DNA of 64,000 bases from a virus (Duplodnaviria > Caudoviricetes): positions 1 through 64,000 of the IMG/VR virus record IMGVR_UViG_3300021255_005861; one strand, 5' to 3'. The notes beneath the pieces were generated by a model that saw only the letters and a program-made list of their open reading frames with translations, was not told where the DNA came from and made no database searches. The position numbers and the translations under genes are program-made. Below are positions 7,020-60,292 of this stretch, piece by piece. Positions within the stretch are counted from its first letter, which is position 1. Every line of letters begins with the position of its first letter.

Positions 7020-7086
7020 GAAATAAGTAAGTTGCGGATGAAACTTACACGATGTATATTTGTTTGAACCTATAAGGATAAAACCA

Positions 7087-19917: not shown

Positions 19918-20182
19918 CAATTAGCGGCGGGAAAGATGCCACCCTGAAGGGTGGCATATGAGAGCCGTCTAAAAAACATTAAAAGTACTTGCATTTTTGA
20001 AACCAATAAACTATATTAGTAATTGTCAGGCCGAAAGACATTAAATATGCGGGTACCTCCGGAACGGAGGAAACTTATGAGGGTGGACTGGCGGACCTAT
20101 ATATCCCGACCTAATTTGGAAAGGACAAGCCCGCTGGGTTGAAACCCGAAGCTGCCGCCCTTTAGGGCGGTCTGTAGTTCAC
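19918..20182 (+). mobile_element. non-autonomous IS200/IS605 mini-element (PATE-like) with promoter and probable omega-RNA
   Basis: left hairpin ATGCCACCCTGAAGGGTGGCAT; TTGCAT-N17-TATATT; right hairpin CCGCCCTTTAGGGCGG ending GTAGTTCAC, the same terminus as the tnpB element at 36604. Confidence 0.8.
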
Positions 20183-31922: not shown

Positions 31923-32312
31923 ATGGAAAACCCTAACGAACACATACCGGTCCCGCAGTCCGACCTCGACGCCCTCCGCGCCAAGACGGCCAAGAAGATG
32001 CTCAATATTACCGCCCGCATGGTGGACAGTATCGACAACCTCTCCTTCCGCCTCGACGCCATCGACAACGCCCTCGGACAGCGCAATTTGGACGAGATGT
32101 CCCCGCAGGAGCTCATCGCGATGTTCAACCAGGCCCGCGACTCCTTCAGGCTCCGCCAGGACTTCCTCAAGGCCCTCTCGGGCTACGAGGCCGATACCTC
32201 CAAGGTGCCCGTGGACACCGACGTGGACGGCAGGGACAACTCCGTGTCCGAGGAGGACGCGGAACGTATCAAGGCACAAATACTAGGCCAAGAGGTGAAA
32301 CATGAGAATTAA
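31923..32312 (+). CDS. helical hypothetical protein
   Basis: ORF after an AT-rich promoter-like gap. Confidence 0.6.
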   Translation: MENPNEHIPVPQSDLDALRAKTAKKMLNITARMVDSIDNLSFRLDAIDNALGQRNLDEMSPQELIAMFNQARDSFRLRQDFLKALSGYEADTSKVPVDTDVDGRDNSVSEEDAERIKAQILGQEVKHEN

Positions 32313-32805
32313 GGTACACGAGAAGAACTCCCCCGAGACCGTCCAGTACTACAAGGACGTATGCGACCTGCTGTCGGGCACTTTCTCCGACTGCCGCATC
32401 CGCAGCAACTTCCCGTTCCTGCTCATCGACGAGGGGCGATTCCCCTCCAAGGACGTGCTCGGCGACCAGTACTACGCCACGACCCGCCTCAAGACCAACG
32501 ACCCGGTAGTGCGCCTGCAGGTCAATATGGGCCCGAAGCACGGGTTTATCAAGGAATTTGAAATCCATGGTACGCCCGAGGACATGGCCGAGGACATCGC
32601 CCTGACCATCGAGGACAAGATGCCCGAGTTGTGGAAGCACTTTGACGAGGACTACGACGAGGCCATCAAGAAGCAGTTCGGGGGCCTCTACACACACTTC
32701 TACGACAAGTACCTCGACGTTATTGAGGAGTACAAGAAGCAGATGATGCCCCCTTCCGATATCCGCAGGGAAGTGGACAAACTGATAGACAGGGATTCAG
32801 ACTAG
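32302..32805 (+). CDS. putative internal head protein
   Basis: N-terminal MRIKVHE signal shared with genes near the capsid. Confidence 0.5.
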   Translation: MRIKVHEKNSPETVQYYKDVCDLLSGTFSDCRIRSNFPFLLIDEGRFPSKDVLGDQYYATTRLKTNDPVVRLQVNMGPKHGFIKEFEIHGTPEDMAEDIALTIEDKMPELWKHFDEDYDEAIKKQFGGLYTHFYDKYLDVIEEYKKQMMPPSDIRREVDKLIDRDSD

Positions 32806-32883
32806 GAGGTAGACTCTAGTACGAGATAACATATATAAAGATGGATAAAGGTATTGCAAAAATGAAGTAGAATATGTATTTTA

Positions 32884-33222
32884 TATCAAGAAATCGCTGT
32901 CCGTAAGATGCGAAACACGAGTTGGTGAATGTCGTAATTATGGCGAGGAGAACCCATCGCCGTCCAGCGTTTGAGTGTTAGCGGCAAGGGCAGGTAGAGT
33001 TTCTTGATACCGGCGATGCCCGCCGGGAATCAGCCCCGCAAGGGGCGCAACGCAACCCGAGATCGGGGCTCTGGCTTCTTCCGTAAGGATTAAGTGAAAC
33101 CCTGGTCGATGAAGGTCGATGAAGGTCGGTGTAGGCCGGAGCCCGCAAGGGCGAGGGCTACGCACCGGGCGGCTTGATAGGGAGCCGTTTGAATCAAGTG
33201 CCCGGTCTGACCGGCGCACCAT
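32884..33222 (+). ncRNA. candidate structured non-coding RNA (~340 nt)
   Basis: TTGCAA-N17-TATTTT promoter; multiple GNRA-type hairpins; long-range TATCAAGAAA/TTTCTTGATA pairing; no credible ORF. Confidence 0.65.
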
Positions 33223-33426
33223 AATATAACCAAGTATGGGACAGCCTATACCTTCCTATACGTTTTATGAGGCAGATAACTGATAATGGATAAGAGATTC
33301 TTTGCCGGGCTTAACCTGGCCGACGCGGTTGAGGGGCAGAACGTCCTGCCCATCCTGGAACTCGAAATCGAGACGGACTGCATCCTGGATGCAACCACGG
33401 GTCTCGCAATCTAGACGGTGGCGCGC

Positions 33427-34188
33427 ATGGAACCGACAATTTACAAACCGAGCGCGTACAAGACACCCGGAGTGTACAAGGGCGCGGGAGGCATATACAA
33501 CGGGCGCGGTATTTACAAGTATAACGAAAATGTAATAGTATATGAAGATTTATTGTTCTGCATGTACGGAAATAAAGAAAATTCTAGGTTTATTGCTGAT
33601 TATTCCGTAGGTCCATTATATTATAGTAACTACAATTCCGCGTTGTTACGAACGGCAGAAGTTAGAAAAGATGTGCTACCAATAGGCGAAGTACCTATAA
33701 TTTATTTGTATGATGTAAAATCAAATTTTGATTATTATACAGAAAATTTTGTATTTGATATAGACGGGTTTACAATTGATTTTTATATAAAAACTCCGTG
33801 GGCGTCTGGAACAGAACGTACAAAAATAGCTTTTCTAGGTTTACGAAATGCCTCAAACGTCCGGTCTGCTTTTATTTTTGGCCCTTTTGTCAACGGGATA
33901 TATTACAATCCTGGAACTGGTGGAAAAAATATAACTACGCAACAGGGCGCGGCAGGGTGGAATCATTGGGAATTGGACTTTGATACTAATACACGTTCAC
34001 TAACCTATTACTTAAATGGAGTACTTACAAAACAGGTTACAATTTCATTGAGTGATATAAAACAAATAGACTTGGCTGGTGTTTCTCTTGAATCCAATCA
34101 CCCTGAAACTTATGTTTCACAAGTGGCCATGTGGAAAAAGAAAATGAATGGAGCTTGTTTTCAAATGGGGAAATATTTTAACGTATAA
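33427..34188 (+). CDS. G/Y-rich leader plus ConA/LamG-like beta-sandwich protein
   Basis: GFTIDFYIK...GWNHWEL...YYLNGVL...VSQVAMW; AT-rich body. Confidence 0.7.
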   Translation: MEPTIYKPSAYKTPGVYKGAGGIYNGRGIYKYNENVIVYEDLLFCMYGNKENSRFIADYSVGPLYYSNYNSALLRTAEVRKDVLPIGEVPIIYLYDVKSNFDYYTENFVFDIDGFTIDFYIKTPWASGTERTKIAFLGLRNASNVRSAFIFGPFVNGIYYNPGTGGKNITTQQGAAGWNHWELDFDTNTRSLTYYLNGVLTKQVTISLSDIKQIDLAGVSLESNHPETYVSQVAMWKKKMNGACFQMGKYFNV

Positions 34189-36603: not shown

Positions 36604-38061
36604 GTGAACTACCCACAGCCTAAAAGGCTGTGAGCTTCGAGTTTTCGCTTCGACGGAGCCACTTGTACTAACCCAGCAGAACTGGGAAGCATAGAGGAGG
36701 CTACCTCAGCGGAGGCGTGTTCCACGCACTCAGCACGTTTAGTCGTGCCAAACAAAAGTACATTACAGGCGGAATGCCAGTCTCTGGGCTTGGTGTATCC
36801 GCAATCACAATGATATGTGCGTTCATCCAACCCAATCTGATTGACTGCACCGCATACCGGACACATCTTGGTTGTCGGCAACCACTTTGACAGCACGAAT
36901 GCACGGTCTGCCTTGGCCAGCATCTTAATGCGCTGTTTAAGGGCACCCATGCAAGAGTGCTGGACTTGCTTGCCGAACCACGTCTGGTGCCAGTTATTGA
37001 TTTGCTCGTCCTGTATGTAGATGACATCGTAGTTGGACACAAGGTCGTGGTAGATTTTGTTGCAGATGTCCTTGCGGACATTCGCAACATGTTCATGCTC
37101 ACGGGCAAGCTGCTTCCTACAGTTCCATCGCCGCTTGGAGTCCTTCTCTTTCTTGTGCCTGTTTAGCATCTTGCTCAGGTACTTCAGGTACTCGGTTTCT
37201 TGCACTTTGCAATCGTAGGTCTTGTTGTCCGATGTCGTTATCGTGTTCTTAATGCCGAAGTCCAGTCCGACACTCTTGCGGGTGCGGTTCCTCGGTTCCT
37301 TCGGTAGCATTACGCTAATCTTTACGTAGTAGCCAGATGCCTTCCTGATTAGCTTGGCATCGGCTATCTCATATTCCTCAAACTCTATCTGATGCAACCC
37401 GTTCACCTTCAGCTTCCTGAATCCAGGAATTGTGATGTGGCTTGCATCCAGAATCTTCGTAAAACCCGTAATGATGGGGATGCAGTTCACTTCCGACTTG
37501 AACTTCAATGCACCAACCTTGATTCCTTTCTTCTTGGCTTTTGCAAGGTTGATGATGTCTGTCTTCTTCTGTGCCACGGTAGCTCTATGGAGCACTGATG
37601 GCAAAGTAATCGGTGAATTGACCGGTTTCTTGTCCTTGTCGTAGTGGACTACATCCTTGTGCTCGGTGTACTTGTAATCGAACATGCTGTTGTCTGGGTT
37701 ATCTTTCGACAAGGACAGCATGTCGTTGACTACCCACTTAGCTTCCTTGAAACATTGGGCCAGCTTCTCGAACACCGATTTCGGGTTGTGCCGTATAGAA
37801 ACTTTAAGCTCGAATACTCGGCATATCTGCGACTTACGACGGGCATGGGTCTCAGCCATGCTCGCCTTAATCCTTGCCTTCGTATCTTCGCTTCTTACCA
37901 GTTCCATATCAAGTTTCTTGACTATACTTATAGTTTAGACGGTTTACTCAATAAATATATCTATTTTTAACGGGTATGAAATGTTATTTATTTCTTACAT
38001 TTGCTATCGGCGGGTCTTACCCACGCCCTAAAGGGCGTGAGCTTGCGACCGCCTATTTGTC
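36604..38061 (-). mobile_element. IS200/IS605-family (IS1341-type, tnpB-only) insertion
   Basis: minus strand: TTTGA|CAAATAGG left end with hairpin CACGCCCTTTAGGGCGTG; right hairpin CACAGCCTTTTAGGCTGTG then GTAGTTCAC. Confidence 0.85.
36609..37907 (-). CDS. tnpB: TnpB RNA-guided endonuclease
   Basis: RuvC-I GLDFGIK, IQDE, CPVCG/CDCG zinc ribbon, RuvC-III RDWHSACN. Confidence 0.92.
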   Translation of the reverse strand: MELVRSEDTKARIKASMAETHARRKSQICRVFELKVSIRHNPKSVFEKLAQCFKEAKWVVNDMLSLSKDNPDNSMFDYKYTEHKDVVHYDKDKKPVNSPITLPSVLHRATVAQKKTDIINLAKAKKKGIKVGALKFKSEVNCIPIITGFTKILDASHITIPGFRKLKVNGLHQIEFEEYEIADAKLIRKASGYYVKISVMLPKEPRNRTRKSVGLDFGIKNTITTSDNKTYDCKVQETEYLKYLSKMLNRHKKEKDSKRRWNCRKQLAREHEHVANVRKDICNKIYHDLVSNYDVIYIQDEQINNWHQTWFGKQVQHSCMGALKQRIKMLAKADRAFVLSKWLPTTKMCPVCGAVNQIGLDERTYHCDCGYTKPRDWHSACNVLLFGTTKRAECVEHASAEVASSMLPSSAGLVQVAPSKRKLEAHSLLGCG

Positions 38062-44732: not shown

Positions 44733-45323
44733 ATGGATATCAAACTTTCTAAATATGCTATAGAGCATAATATTACTTATAGGACGGCCCATAACTGGTT
44801 TAAGGCCGGAAAAATACCGAATGCATATCAAAAGGAAGATACCCATAGCATCTTCGTGACAGTGAACCCGCTGCAGAAGGGGCTTGAAGCTACAAGGGTT
44901 GTCATATATGCCCGTGTGAGTAGTCATGAAAAGAAGAACGACCTGTTTAGGCAGGTTGAACGCTGTAAGGACTACGCCGCAGCCAACGGATACAAGGTAG
45001 ACGCCATCTACAAGGAAATCGCTTCGGGTATGAATGATAATCGCCCGAAGTTCTGGGAAATGCTATCCTCCGAGCCTACTACCATTATATGCGAAAATAA
45101 GGATAGGCTTACACGATTCGGGTTCAACTACATCGAGAGGCTCTTGTCCAAGAATGGCTGTTCCATAGACGTTATGTATCCTAACGACAACAATGAACAA
45201 GATATTATAAAGGATATGATCGCCATAGTTACATCGTTCTGCTGTAGGCTCTATGGTGCACGTCGTGCACAAAACAAGATTAAACGGATGAAGCTGGTAC
45301 TGGAAAGCGACAAGGACGAATAG
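44733..45323 (+). CDS. tnpA: IS607 serine recombinase transposase
   Basis: N-terminal MerR-like HTH, IYARVSS, EIASGMN, KDRLTRFGF, SFCCRLYGAR. Confidence 0.95.
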   Translation: MDIKLSKYAIEHNITYRTAHNWFKAGKIPNAYQKEDTHSIFVTVNPLQKGLEATRVVIYARVSSHEKKNDLFRQVERCKDYAAANGYKVDAIYKEIASGMNDNRPKFWEMLSSEPTTIICENKDRLTRFGFNYIERLLSKNGCSIDVMYPNDNNEQDIIKDMIAIVTSFCCRLYGARRAQNKIKRMKLVLESDKDE

Positions 45324-45326
45324 TCT

Positions 45327-46640
45327 ATGATTGTAAGGATGACACGACATACGCTAAAGTACGCCAATACGGGCAAGCAGGAGGCGGTAACTACGCTTCT
45401 TGCAGAATGGCGGCGTGTCATGCAGTTGTATTGTGATGAAATTTGGGATAACGGGTATAGGTGGAATGATGATAGCGGGTGGCACGAGTTCAAGCCCCGT
45501 GAGTTCAAGTATGAATTACCGAAATATTTGGACTATAAGTATTTCAACGTAGAGACTTGGCTATCTGCCCGAATGCTTAGTTCTTTAGTAACGCAATTAA
45601 GCGGTAAATTACGAGCGATATGCAGCAAGAATGAGGCTCGCCTACATGTATTTGACAAGGAAGCTGGTAAGGGAAACTACCTGGATAGGTTATGGGAGAA
45701 GATCGAAGCCCAGAACCCAACCAAGCCGGACCTTTCCGATGCAGGTATAGAGATATCCAGCAAGTGTGCAGAGTTCTATAGGACACCAGGGGGGGAGTTC
45801 TTTGGATTTCTCCGTATCAGGTCTACGGGATTACCCATATTCAATATTCCTATATGCAAGCATTCCCACTTGTCTAAATATGCCGAAGATATATCCTGGA
45901 AACAATGCAATGGATACCTTATCGACGAATATGGAGTACAATTACGATGGCAGAAGGAAGTACCTGAACGTACGGAAGGAATTAAGGTTGGTATAGACCA
46001 GGGATTGAAGACATGCTTGTCCTTATCGGACGGTCAAACTACAATGGATATGGTTGTACCTGCCCCTAGAAAAGGAGACCCAAATCGGACTATAATAAAA
46101 AACCTCGATACCTTGACGGACAAGATGTGCCGTAAGAAAAAAGGCTCAAAGGCATTCAGGCGGTGCCAAGCAGAACGTAAGAATTACATAGGATACGCAA
46201 TAAACCGCATAGACTTTAATGGCATAAAGGAAATCGGTTTAGAGAAGATAACGAATATCAACTACGGCAGGAATATTGCCAGAAAATTGAAACATTGGTC
46301 CAATCCGGAAATCGTTACTAGGCTCACACAGATTGCGGAGGAACTCGGAGTCCGAGTGAATCTACAATCTAACGCCTACAGATCACAACGATGCTCCGAG
46401 TGTGGACACGTACTCAAGGCTGCGAGGAAGGGAAAGTTATATGTCTGCCCTACTTGTGGGATGGCTATGGATGCGGACACGAATGCATCAAAGAACCATG
46501 CTATAGAACTACCCGATATACCTCGTTGCACTGTGTTGTCCAACCTAGCCAAGAGCGAGGGCTTCTACTGGATGCCTAATGGCTTGTTTAGGATGGATGG
46601 TTCGGAGTTTAGAGTCCCGGACACGTATAAAAGTCAATAG
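45327..46640 (+). CDS. tnpB: IS607-associated TnpB endonuclease
   Basis: GIDQGLK, GLEKI, SQRCSECG...CPTCG, DADTNASKN. Confidence 0.92.
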   Translation: MIVRMTRHTLKYANTGKQEAVTTLLAEWRRVMQLYCDEIWDNGYRWNDDSGWHEFKPREFKYELPKYLDYKYFNVETWLSARMLSSLVTQLSGKLRAICSKNEARLHVFDKEAGKGNYLDRLWEKIEAQNPTKPDLSDAGIEISSKCAEFYRTPGGEFFGFLRIRSTGLPIFNIPICKHSHLSKYAEDISWKQCNGYLIDEYGVQLRWQKEVPERTEGIKVGIDQGLKTCLSLSDGQTTMDMVVPAPRKGDPNRTIIKNLDTLTDKMCRKKKGSKAFRRCQAERKNYIGYAINRIDFNGIKEIGLEKITNINYGRNIARKLKHWSNPEIVTRLTQIAEELGVRVNLQSNAYRSQRCSECGHVLKAARKGKLYVCPTCGMAMDADTNASKNHAIELPDIPRCTVLSNLAKSEGFYWMPNGLFRMDGSEFRVPDTYKSQ

Positions 46641-59264: not shown

Positions 59265-59765
59265 ATGGCAATCAAGATCCACGTCAACGAATCTACCAAC
59301 AACGGCCTCGTGAAGGCCCTTTCCGAAGGCCTGGAACGCCTTGTGGGCAAGCTCCAAGAAGAATTTCCGCTTCTCGACGACCACGGCCAAGAATACGGCG
59401 TCGCCATCAGCGGTAGCGACCCGAAGGTAAACCCCGTGACGTCGTCCCGCTGGTACGACGCGGACAAGGCCGATGTCGTGGAGGTGGTGTCCGACGTGTT
59501 CGCCCGCAACATGGGCGGCGATGTCCTTGATTCCAACGTGACGTACAACGTGCGCTTCGAGACTGCCGGCGGGGACGAGTTCTTCGCCCGCGTCAAGGTG
59601 TTTACTGACGCAGGAGACGAGGACATCCTCGGGCTCGACCGTATCCGCTTCGACGGCGACGTGGATTACGCCGTGGACGTAATAAGCAAGCGCATCGTAG
59701 AGGACCTGGACGAGCGCATCCCGGACAATTCCGCAATCCGCGATTACACCGGCAGGAAGAAATGA
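59265..59765 (+). CDS. putative internal head protein
   Basis: MAIKIHVNES; C-terminal DVDYAVDVI shared with the next gene. Confidence 0.6.
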   Translation: MAIKIHVNESTNNGLVKALSEGLERLVGKLQEEFPLLDDHGQEYGVAISGSDPKVNPVTSSRWYDADKADVVEVVSDVFARNMGGDVLDSNVTYNVRFETAGGDEFFARVKVFTDAGDEDILGLDRIRFDGDVDYAVDVISKRIVEDLDERIPDNSAIRDYTGRKK

Positions 59766-60292
59766 TTATCCATGTAAGAGAGCACAGGAACGAGTCCGCC
59801 GGCGACAGTCTGGCGGAAGCCCTGAAGAAGGCGCTCCCCAAGGTGGAGTCCGAGGTCGCCTCCCGCATCAAGCCCGTCGCGGGCAACGGCGACTGGTGGT
59901 TGAACTGCGAGGTGTCCGGCACGCTGGACGAGCGTGTCACCGAAACCGACGACCCCGAGTACTACGACCTCGACTTGTACGAGCCCGAGGACGGCGAGAG
60001 CAAGGTGGTCGCACCCGAGTTGCGCTACTACCTCTCTGTGTACCCCGGATACTACGACGACGATGGCAAGTACAAGGGCGACTGGAACCTGGACACGGTA
60101 GAGTTCCTGGTGGACATCGAGGTATGCCCCGCAGGCGAGGACTTCCACGTGGAGGTCAAGTACTGGAAGGGCGACAGCCCGATGCGGAAGATCTTCTCCC
60201 TTTCGTTCAACCCGTCCGACGTGGACTACGGGGTGGAACGCATTATTGAAGCCATCTTGGACGAATTGACTGGAATGGGTCTTTCCGACTAG
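59762..60292 (+). CDS. putative internal head protein
   Basis: MIIHVREHRNES; DVDYGVERI. Confidence 0.6.
   Translation: MIIHVREHRNESAGDSLAEALKKALPKVESEVASRIKPVAGNGDWWLNCEVSGTLDERVTETDDPEYYDLDLYEPEDGESKVVAPELRYYLSVYPGYYDDDGKYKGDWNLDTVEFLVDIEVCPAGEDFHVEVKYWKGDSPMRKIFSLSFNPSDVDYGVERIIEAILDELTGMGLSD

Follow-up and report, generated by a model that had tools for sequence, protein, structure and literature searches.

Phages that share 92-99% identity differ at two loci in the presence or absence of a 467-bp ORF-less cassette, identified here in the genome of an uncultured sheep-rumen T4-like myovirus. With a confidence just short of even, we read it as an accessory unit, reminiscent of phage "morons" and of the promoter-early stem-loop (PeSL) cassettes, that carries a new structured noncoding RNA (ncRNA) and is shuffled by short-homology recombination. 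The window, by which we mean the whole stretch of DNA analyzed, comprises positions 1 to 64,000 of the IMG/VR record IMGVR_UViG_3300021255_005861; the genome record that holds it, denoted G000, is 185,666 bp in size, and L-numbers denote loci or contigs of relatives compared with it. A sheath and baseplate module lies upstream of the cassette, and the recombination genes of the phage (UvsX-, UvsY- and gp32-like) are located away from the site occupied in the window, site A. Because no relative of the sheath protein was found among cultured phages, no host can be assigned. In distant relatives, whose sheath proteins are 53-55% identical, synteny ends just upstream of the cassette and there is no counterpart of the RNA. 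The layout of the cassette and its downstream neighbours is given in Table 1.

Table 1. Features of the cassette and of the adjoining genes (window coordinates)
Feature	Position	Strand	Remarks
Whole ORF-less cassette	32809-33275	+	467 bp; present, absent or elsewhere in near-identical phages
AT-rich left arm	32809-32853	+	First base G (window, L024) or A (L028, L030)
Sigma-70-like promoter	32854-32882	+	TTGCAA, 17 nt, TATTTT
RNA domain 1	32884-33009	+	About 125 nt; 11-bp closing helix; apical hairpin 32940-32963
6-bp hairpin	33010-33026	+	One pair G-C to G-U in site-B copies
Central hairpins, GCAA and GUAA tetraloops	33032-33100	+	GCCCC/GGGGC runs could pair alternatively
Tandem 10-nt repeat	33104-33133	+	Window: two perfect units and one degenerate
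Three 3' hairpins	33129-33163 (GCAA loop), 33166-33191, 33198-33219	+	Two G-U/G-C alternations in 33166-33191
Tail module	33218-33275	+	13-nt motif 33218-33230; 7-nt direct repeats at 33245 and 33255; Shine-Dalgarno-like GAGG 33269-33272
42-aa ORF	33286-33414	+	Directly downstream neighbour, outside the cassette
Next downstream gene	33418-34188	+	Neighbour, outside the cassette; present with the 42-aa ORF in cassette-free L013

At site A, homology between the window and L013, a 92% identical relative, ends at position 32808, three bases past the stop codon of a 167-aa gene, and is found again from about 33272-33276 on, immediately ahead of the 42-aa gene; between these points L013 has two protein genes and no RNA. 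L028 and L030 contain a protein gene set similar to that of L013, followed by the RNA unit, and since the site is filled in the same context in these two contigs, L013 represents a clean empty site A, interrupted after GGAG and before ATAAC. A 21-mer scan of IMG/VR revealed L024, which contains a 467-bp unit 96.8% identical to that of the window on a contig otherwise 95-98% identical to G000 151997-157253. Here the unit is inserted exactly between G000 155894 and 155895, and since these are adjacent bases in the window genome, that genome carries the empty allele of the second site, site B, which lies 123 kb from site A, behind a UvsX-like gene. Besides L024, site B is filled in five further contigs (L031-L035, from ENA, Logan and JGI), and it is empty in the window genome and three contigs (L045-L047), with both alleles occurring together in one sample (JGI 3300002641). 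The cassette-bearing phages are 92-99% identical to the window phage, and the unit has been kept at the two loci across several samples and years.

Both targets consist of GGAG followed by A, and GGAG/AG(A) microhomologies are found at every junction. Between the two sites, the cassette ends agree within 2 nt on both left and right, the overlap at the junction being 2 nt (AG) at site B and 5 nt (AGATA) at site A; terminal inverted repeats are absent and the ends are not complementary. The Shine-Dalgarno sequence at the end of the cassette replaces the GGAG that is displaced by the insertion. In L038 the cassette is missing except for its last five bases, and the joint lies at an AGG microhomology, which looks like the footprint of a deletion. 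No circle or tandem junction of the cassette was found in IMG/VR. The gene content behind the 167-aa gene is hypervariable among these phages: there are no further protein genes in the window, genes for 404 and 138 aa in L013, for 283, 103 and 130/138 aa in L028/L030, and for 278, 103 and 138 aa in L038, and none of the proteins tested from this stretch has a Pfam or PHROG match. At site B, the UvsX-like gene is followed by a 59-aa ORF (G000 155728-155906; L044:1729-1907), the last three codons of which are exchanged upon insertion for six cassette-encoded codons, resulting in a 62-aa ORF in L024.

Transcription of the RNA would start from a promoter already recognized in the sequence-only reading that preceded this analysis; TTGCAA (32854-32859), a 17-nt spacer and TATTTT (32877-32882) are present as that reading had it. 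The promoter was missed by a generic scan because it agrees with only 8 of the 12 consensus positions. The pattern TTGCnn-N17-TATNTT occurs twice in the window, against 0.04 occurrences expected, and 11 times on the plus strand of the 186-kb genome, mostly right before gene starts. An alignment of the copies shows both hexamers unchanged in every one of them, with a single SNP in the spacer. On these sequence features the promoter appears credible and a member of a recurrent class. The copies of a TTGCnn-N17-TATATT class, all on the plus strand, are located at window positions 7032, 18427, 19989 and 32854 and at G000 72490, 72943, 78807, 79878, 100900 and 103254; several of them lie 6-10 nt upstream of a start codon, and those at 19989 and 78807 precede other ORF-free structured stretches. 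The predicted start, about 7 nt past the -10 box, would leave only about half of the 5' strand of the helix that closes domain 1 in the transcript.

The putative structured RNA is GC-rich, about 335 nt long and predicted to span about 32889-33221 on the plus strand. The helices and repeats listed by inspection are all present in the sequence: 32884-32894 can pair with 32999-33009 (10/11 bp) and would enclose a domain of about 125 nt; hairpins are present at 33010-33026, 33033-33046 (GCAA loop) and 33080-33089 (GUAA loop) and, in the 3' part, at 33141-33152 (GCAA loop), 33166-33191 and 33198-33219; and the 10-nt tandem repeat is found at 33104-33133. The minimum free energy (MFE) of the plus strand is -146.6 kcal/mol (z -4.24, with none of 100 shuffles folding as well), compared with -121.1 kcal/mol (z -2.45) for the minus strand, a difference of 25 kcal/mol. 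When 455 segments of equal length, taken from both strands of about 136 kb of G000, were scanned and MFE was regressed on GC content, the plus strand of the cassette had the lowest residual in the scan (-2.38 SD, the next segment having -2.36) and the minus strand an average one (-0.16 SD). The fold signal is strand-specific, but it lies at the top of a continuum, as an extreme value and not a dramatic outlier. The predicted fold of domain 1 agrees across MFE, centroid and alifold structures and the two-repeat variant, and the variant that is one repeat unit shorter folds into the same domains (z -4.66). G-U pairs account for 12 of the 105 predicted pairs. In a fold extended into the 42-aa ORF (one MFE structure of a 422-nt RNA), the start of that ORF becomes an alternative partner for the 3' strand of helix 1.

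Three distinct RNA sequences are available in all, at least 96% identical to each other, and every copy outside the window genome has one perfect 10-nt repeat unit fewer. Three substitutions fall in stems, and all are G-C/G-U alternations that keep the pairing on the plus strand and give a C-A mismatch on the minus strand; the remaining ones are located in loops or a bulge, so that none of the predicted pairs is broken. Double, compensatory changes are absent among the three variants, and three half-compensatory changes out of three have a probability of about 0.125 by chance. With three variants at 96% identity or more, this pattern is compatible with the proposed fold and statistically uninformative. 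The sequence-only reading had also envisaged a pseudoknot between CTTGAT and ATCAAG; it is not supported, as a U-to-C change in the other variants costs a pair.

A 10-nt indel bears on coding potential. The only sizeable ORF in the cassette, 94 aa on the minus strand (32938-33222), is frameshifted by it in all other copies, in keeping with the earlier description of the region as ORF-free. Both a word search of 5.8 billion proteins and an exhaustive HMMER search of 1.84 billion representatives returned as relatives of this ORF only spurious ORFs called on the same element, and minus-strand coding was rejected on the basis of the frameshift and the lack of genuine protein relatives. Within a 36-aa plus-strand ORF, all substitutions are non-synonymous in our reading of the copy alignment.

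The last hairpin ends in GCACCA (33216-33221), as had been noted from the sequence, but these bases are part of a recurrent downstream motif and not a demonstrated RNA end. A 13-nt motif that contains the CCA (33218-33230) recurs at G000 865(-) and 83003(-) and belongs to an AATATAAY family, of which there are 28 copies against 4.4 expected in shuffles and which probably represents a second phage promoter or leader class. A conserved intergenic motif of about 60-70 nt, composed of AATATAAC, TTCC and, about 30 nt further on, AATGTAAGAAA and AAATAAGA, is present in the window at G000 865(-), 3508(-), 8013(-), 43695(+), 50898(+) and 54906(-) and beyond it at 83003(-), 107289(-), 109122(-), 135177(+) and 184193(+). 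In L026 the last 50 nt or so of the cassette occur alone, as spacer and Shine-Dalgarno sequence of a different gene, and since the tail is found there without the RNA, it constitutes a separate module. Comparison of L026:4558-5240 with window 59762-60292 shows that a gene of a family with an MxIxVxE start has been swapped for a different member, and the replacement gene is the one preceded by the 50-nt tail. No intrinsic terminator was detected in 32300-33800, where the sequence after the last hairpin is A-rich. At the opposite end, a marginal resemblance of the left arm to the start of the downstream 42-aa gene was set aside because 18 of 500 shuffles score equally high.

No homologue with less than 96% identity was found in IMG/VR, JGI metagenomes, GTDB genomes, INPHARED, PLSDB or the 53-55%-related phages. 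INPHARED and PLSDB were searched with blastn, and IMG/VR with exact and purine/pyrimidine-degenerate pattern scans; one scan of GTDB yielded no homologue, and two scans of JGI metagenomes yielded zero matches, which is weak evidence, as even the JGI contigs L028 and L030 were not returned. DNA and covariance-model searches of five related phage records of 80-215 kb and of all fetched loci gave no diverged homologue. Within its own genome the RNA sequence is single-copy, with no paralogue. Matches in L022 and L023 are restricted to a 21-28-nt hairpin in unrelated contexts. This hairpin, with a 5-nt extension (window 33032-33052), recurs at L022:8222-8244, L022:10071-10094 and L023:13474-13501 capped by a GCAA or GAAA loop and positioned shortly before genes of unrelated phage contigs in IMG/VR; it may represent a short RNA or an operator motif of wide distribution.

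None of the Rfam 15 families matches the 64-kb window at the gathering threshold, in a scan that covered GOLLD, ROOL, OLE, raiA, RNase P, tmRNA, 6S, group I/II introns and ribozymes. At E<=10, positions 32600-33500 gave two chance matches only, mir-9437 (E 4.2, outside the RNA) and a C/D snoRNA (E 7.9, minus strand). ARAGORN finds neither tRNA nor tmRNA in the window, in agreement with the initial description; five tRNA genes of G000 are located outside it (regions 114064-114215, 115693-115843 and 152411-152483). The suggestion of a large ncRNA of a possibly new class holds as far as it concerns an ORF-free region with a strand-asymmetric fold, a credible promoter and no Rfam match; the CCA end belongs to the tail module, and the pseudoknot is not supported. 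The cassette RNA resembles GOLLD, ROOL and HEARO in being phage-borne, large, GC-rich and multi-helical, with GNRA loops, no ORF and an accessory distribution. It differs from all three in matching no covariance model and in being confined to one phage lineage, from GOLLD and ROOL in its smaller size, and from HEARO in that it is not found beside an IscB gene.

The 186 kb of G000 encode eight TnpB-like ORFs and three serine recombinases. In the window, TnpB-like ORFs are present at 36609-37907(-) and 45327-46640(+), the latter with a resolvase at 44898-45275, and six others lie beyond it; each cassette site is 2-3.5 kb from a TnpB-like ORF or serine recombinase, which at such density may be due to chance. 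A HEARO (IscB omega) RNA is found outside the window, at G000 146430-146656 (125 bits). Several known element types were considered for the cassette and rejected. An IscB omega RNA is contradicted by the lack of a match to RF02033, the model to which the HEARO of the genome itself scores 125 bits, and of an adjoining IscB gene. A TnpB omega RNA or deleted TnpB element is contradicted as well, there being neither a tnpB remnant nor similarity to the eight TnpB loci; it is further disfavoured because the scaffold does not abut the flank, the last 50 nt being a separate module. A group I intron or IStron finds no covariance-model match and no junction register at site B with U before the 5' junction, while the terminal G of the cassette, a criterion for group I introns, is present but uninformative. 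A group II intron would have 5' GUGYG and 3' AY, whereas the cassette has a polymorphic 5' end (G/A-UAGAC) and a 3' CAG, and it, too, lacks a covariance-model match; no domain-V-like hairpin was seen. A MITE is incompatible with the absence of terminal inverted repeats and with overlaps that are not of fixed length (2 nt at site B, 5 nt at site A).

Two classes of phage cassettes are closer in organization. Phage morons, like the unit described here, are autonomous transcription units between two late-operon genes, dispensable and present or absent among relatives; the unit departs from them in that its cargo is RNA and not protein, that it has no terminator and that it is found at two loci. 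PeSLs are mobile regulatory cassettes of T4-type phages (Arbiol et al. 2010, PMC2839356; Comeau et al. 2014, PMC4122927). As in PeSLs, a small ORF-less unit combines a sigma-70-like promoter of a genome-repeated class with RNA structure; it is found where a T4-like genome is hypervariable, at the edges of segments by which phages about 95% identical differ through insertion, deletion or replacement, and would move via recombination at short repeats. PeSLs, however, are short, are present in many copies per genome and have a stem-loop that acts as a terminator, whereas the structured part of the cassette is about 335 nt long, comprises at least seven helices, is not followed by a U-tract terminator and is single-copy; moreover, in the present case the cassette itself is mobile, and not the genes between cassettes.

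In the reading that we prefer, the host-type sigma-70-like promoter would drive a plus-strand RNA of about 335 nt and many hairpins, and the tail of about 50 nt, with its promoter-like and Shine-Dalgarno elements, would restore expression signals for whichever gene sits downstream. Recombination at short homologies between co-infecting phages, as with the PeSLs of T4-type phages, would shuffle the cassette, and no dedicated transposase would be needed for its movement. Such a PeSL-type model (PMC2839356) fits the phage because of its UvsX-, UvsY- and gp32-like genes and the hypervariability of site A. We see the RNA itself as an independent structured ncRNA that would act in trans, belong to a new family and be produced in the early phase of infection; as to its action, binding or titration of a protein of host or phage, in accessory host takeover or counter-defence, is a guess. 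Several observations count against parts of this reading: without a terminator after it, the RNA may be simply a leader; the predicted start would shorten the closing helix; the three variants show no covariation and the searches gave no diverged homologue; the fold signal is extreme but not of a different order from that of the next segment; no circle or tandem junction turned up; and a dedicated site-specific mechanism would equally account for both ends coinciding at two sites.

Since the terminator is absent, a cis-acting regulatory cassette stays a rival, that is, a mobile promoter with a long structured 5' leader and no independent RNA product, its sole role being to alter the timing, stability or translation of downstream genes. 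We consider this unlikely, and the most serious of the alternatives. It agrees with the lack of a terminator between the RNA and the next gene, with a cassette end made of a promoter-like motif and a Shine-Dalgarno sequence in place of the displaced GGAG, with the pairing of the 3' strand of helix 1 to the start of the 42-aa ORF in the extended fold, and with the purely regulatory nature of PeSLs (PMC2839356). That alternative pairing, however, stems from one MFE prediction of the 422-nt RNA, and the next gene at site B begins about 180 nt past the cassette and is unrelated, so that the two sites share no regulated target; furthermore, L013 has the same downstream genes without the cassette, and 335 nt of GNRA-capped hairpins far exceeds what a donor of promoter and Shine-Dalgarno sequence needs. 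There might also be no functional RNA at all, only a GC-rich spacer or decayed gene remnant that folds by chance and is carried along by recombination, a view that we regard as rather unlikely. The absence of covariation and homologues with three variants at least 96% identical, a fold signal only marginally the best in the genome, a freely varying repeat copy number and the hypervariability of the region all speak for it. It has difficulty in accounting for the strand asymmetry of 25 kcal/mol, the G-U share of the predicted pairs (12/105), the absence of disrupted stems in any variant, the conservation of the promoter, a minus-strand ORF whose only relatives in an exhaustive search are spurious ORFs on the same element, and the retention of the unit at two loci in several samples and years.

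As both ends coincide at two sites, a dedicated mobility mechanism likewise stays a rival to recombination. IS200/IS605 elements insert 3' of a fixed tetra- or pentanucleotide, cause no target duplication, have no inverted repeats, and are cleaved at sites that resemble the target. A non-autonomous transposable element of this, the IS607, the IS91 or another type, mobilized in trans and with the structured RNA serving as a guide (omega-like) or otherwise needed for mobility or homing, would explain ends that differ by no more than 2 nt between two unrelated sites, the GGAG-then-A targets, the lack of terminal inverted repeats and of any duplication beyond the 2-5-nt ambiguity, and the right end GCAG, which resembles GGAG as the family rule has it; the genome, with eight TnpB-like genes, three serine recombinases and an IscB/HEARO unit, is full of such nucleases. 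IS200/IS605, IS607 and TnpB/IscB omega RNAs also offer the precedent of an ORF-less mobile unit with a structured RNA, and of elements with no inverted repeats, no clear target duplication and a short fixed motif 5' of the left end. We nevertheless hold a transposable element to be quite unlikely. Neither at the nucleotide level nor with a covariance model does the cassette resemble anything else in the genome, all TnpB/IscB element ends included, and it has neither residual tnpB coding sequence nor a HEARO match; its scaffold is off the flank, and the last 50 nt, which would have to adjoin the guide in a TnpB-type arrangement, form an independent module that also occurs where the RNA is absent. 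No convincing subterminal hairpins were seen near its ends, by eye only, and the GGAG-then-A targets and absent inverted repeats come from only two sites, with 2-5 nt of ambiguity, one microhomology footprint and no copies in other phages; that footprint in L038 and the 5-nt AGATA overlap suggest microhomology and not fixed cleavage sites. A new type of protein-free autonomous element with a large structured RNA as its sole cargo, in which that RNA itself takes part in targeting or integration at GGAG-A sites, as a ribozyme or as the guide of an enzyme supplied in trans by phage or host, appears improbable, and would make the RNA a mobility determinant and not a passenger. A self-splicing intron in the operon (group I, IStron-like or group II) is scarcely credible: precise insertion, a terminal G, many GNRA loops and an intron-like size are offset by the absence of Intron_gpI or group II matches even at E<=10, of any permitted site-B register with U before the 5' junction and of a visible domain-V-like hairpin, by a first base that is either G or A, and by the positions themselves, intergenic at site A and, at site B, in a small ORF whose C-terminus is changed and not restored.

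A phage genome so heavily colonized by mobile elements (eight TnpB-like genes and an IscB unit) can carry a mobile RNA cassette with no apparent relation to the nuclease elements resident in it. Provided that the RNA is real, it represents a large structured phage RNA of a new family, confined at present, in the databases searched, to one phage lineage, and one RNA gene, complete with promoter and substitute ribosome-binding site, would occupy alternative loci in co-existing strains of one rumen phage. The concept of mobile regulatory cassettes in T4-like phages would then reach beyond short promoter-terminator units and include a complete RNA gene, and natural pairs of phages with and without the cassette are available for studying the function of a large phage ncRNA.
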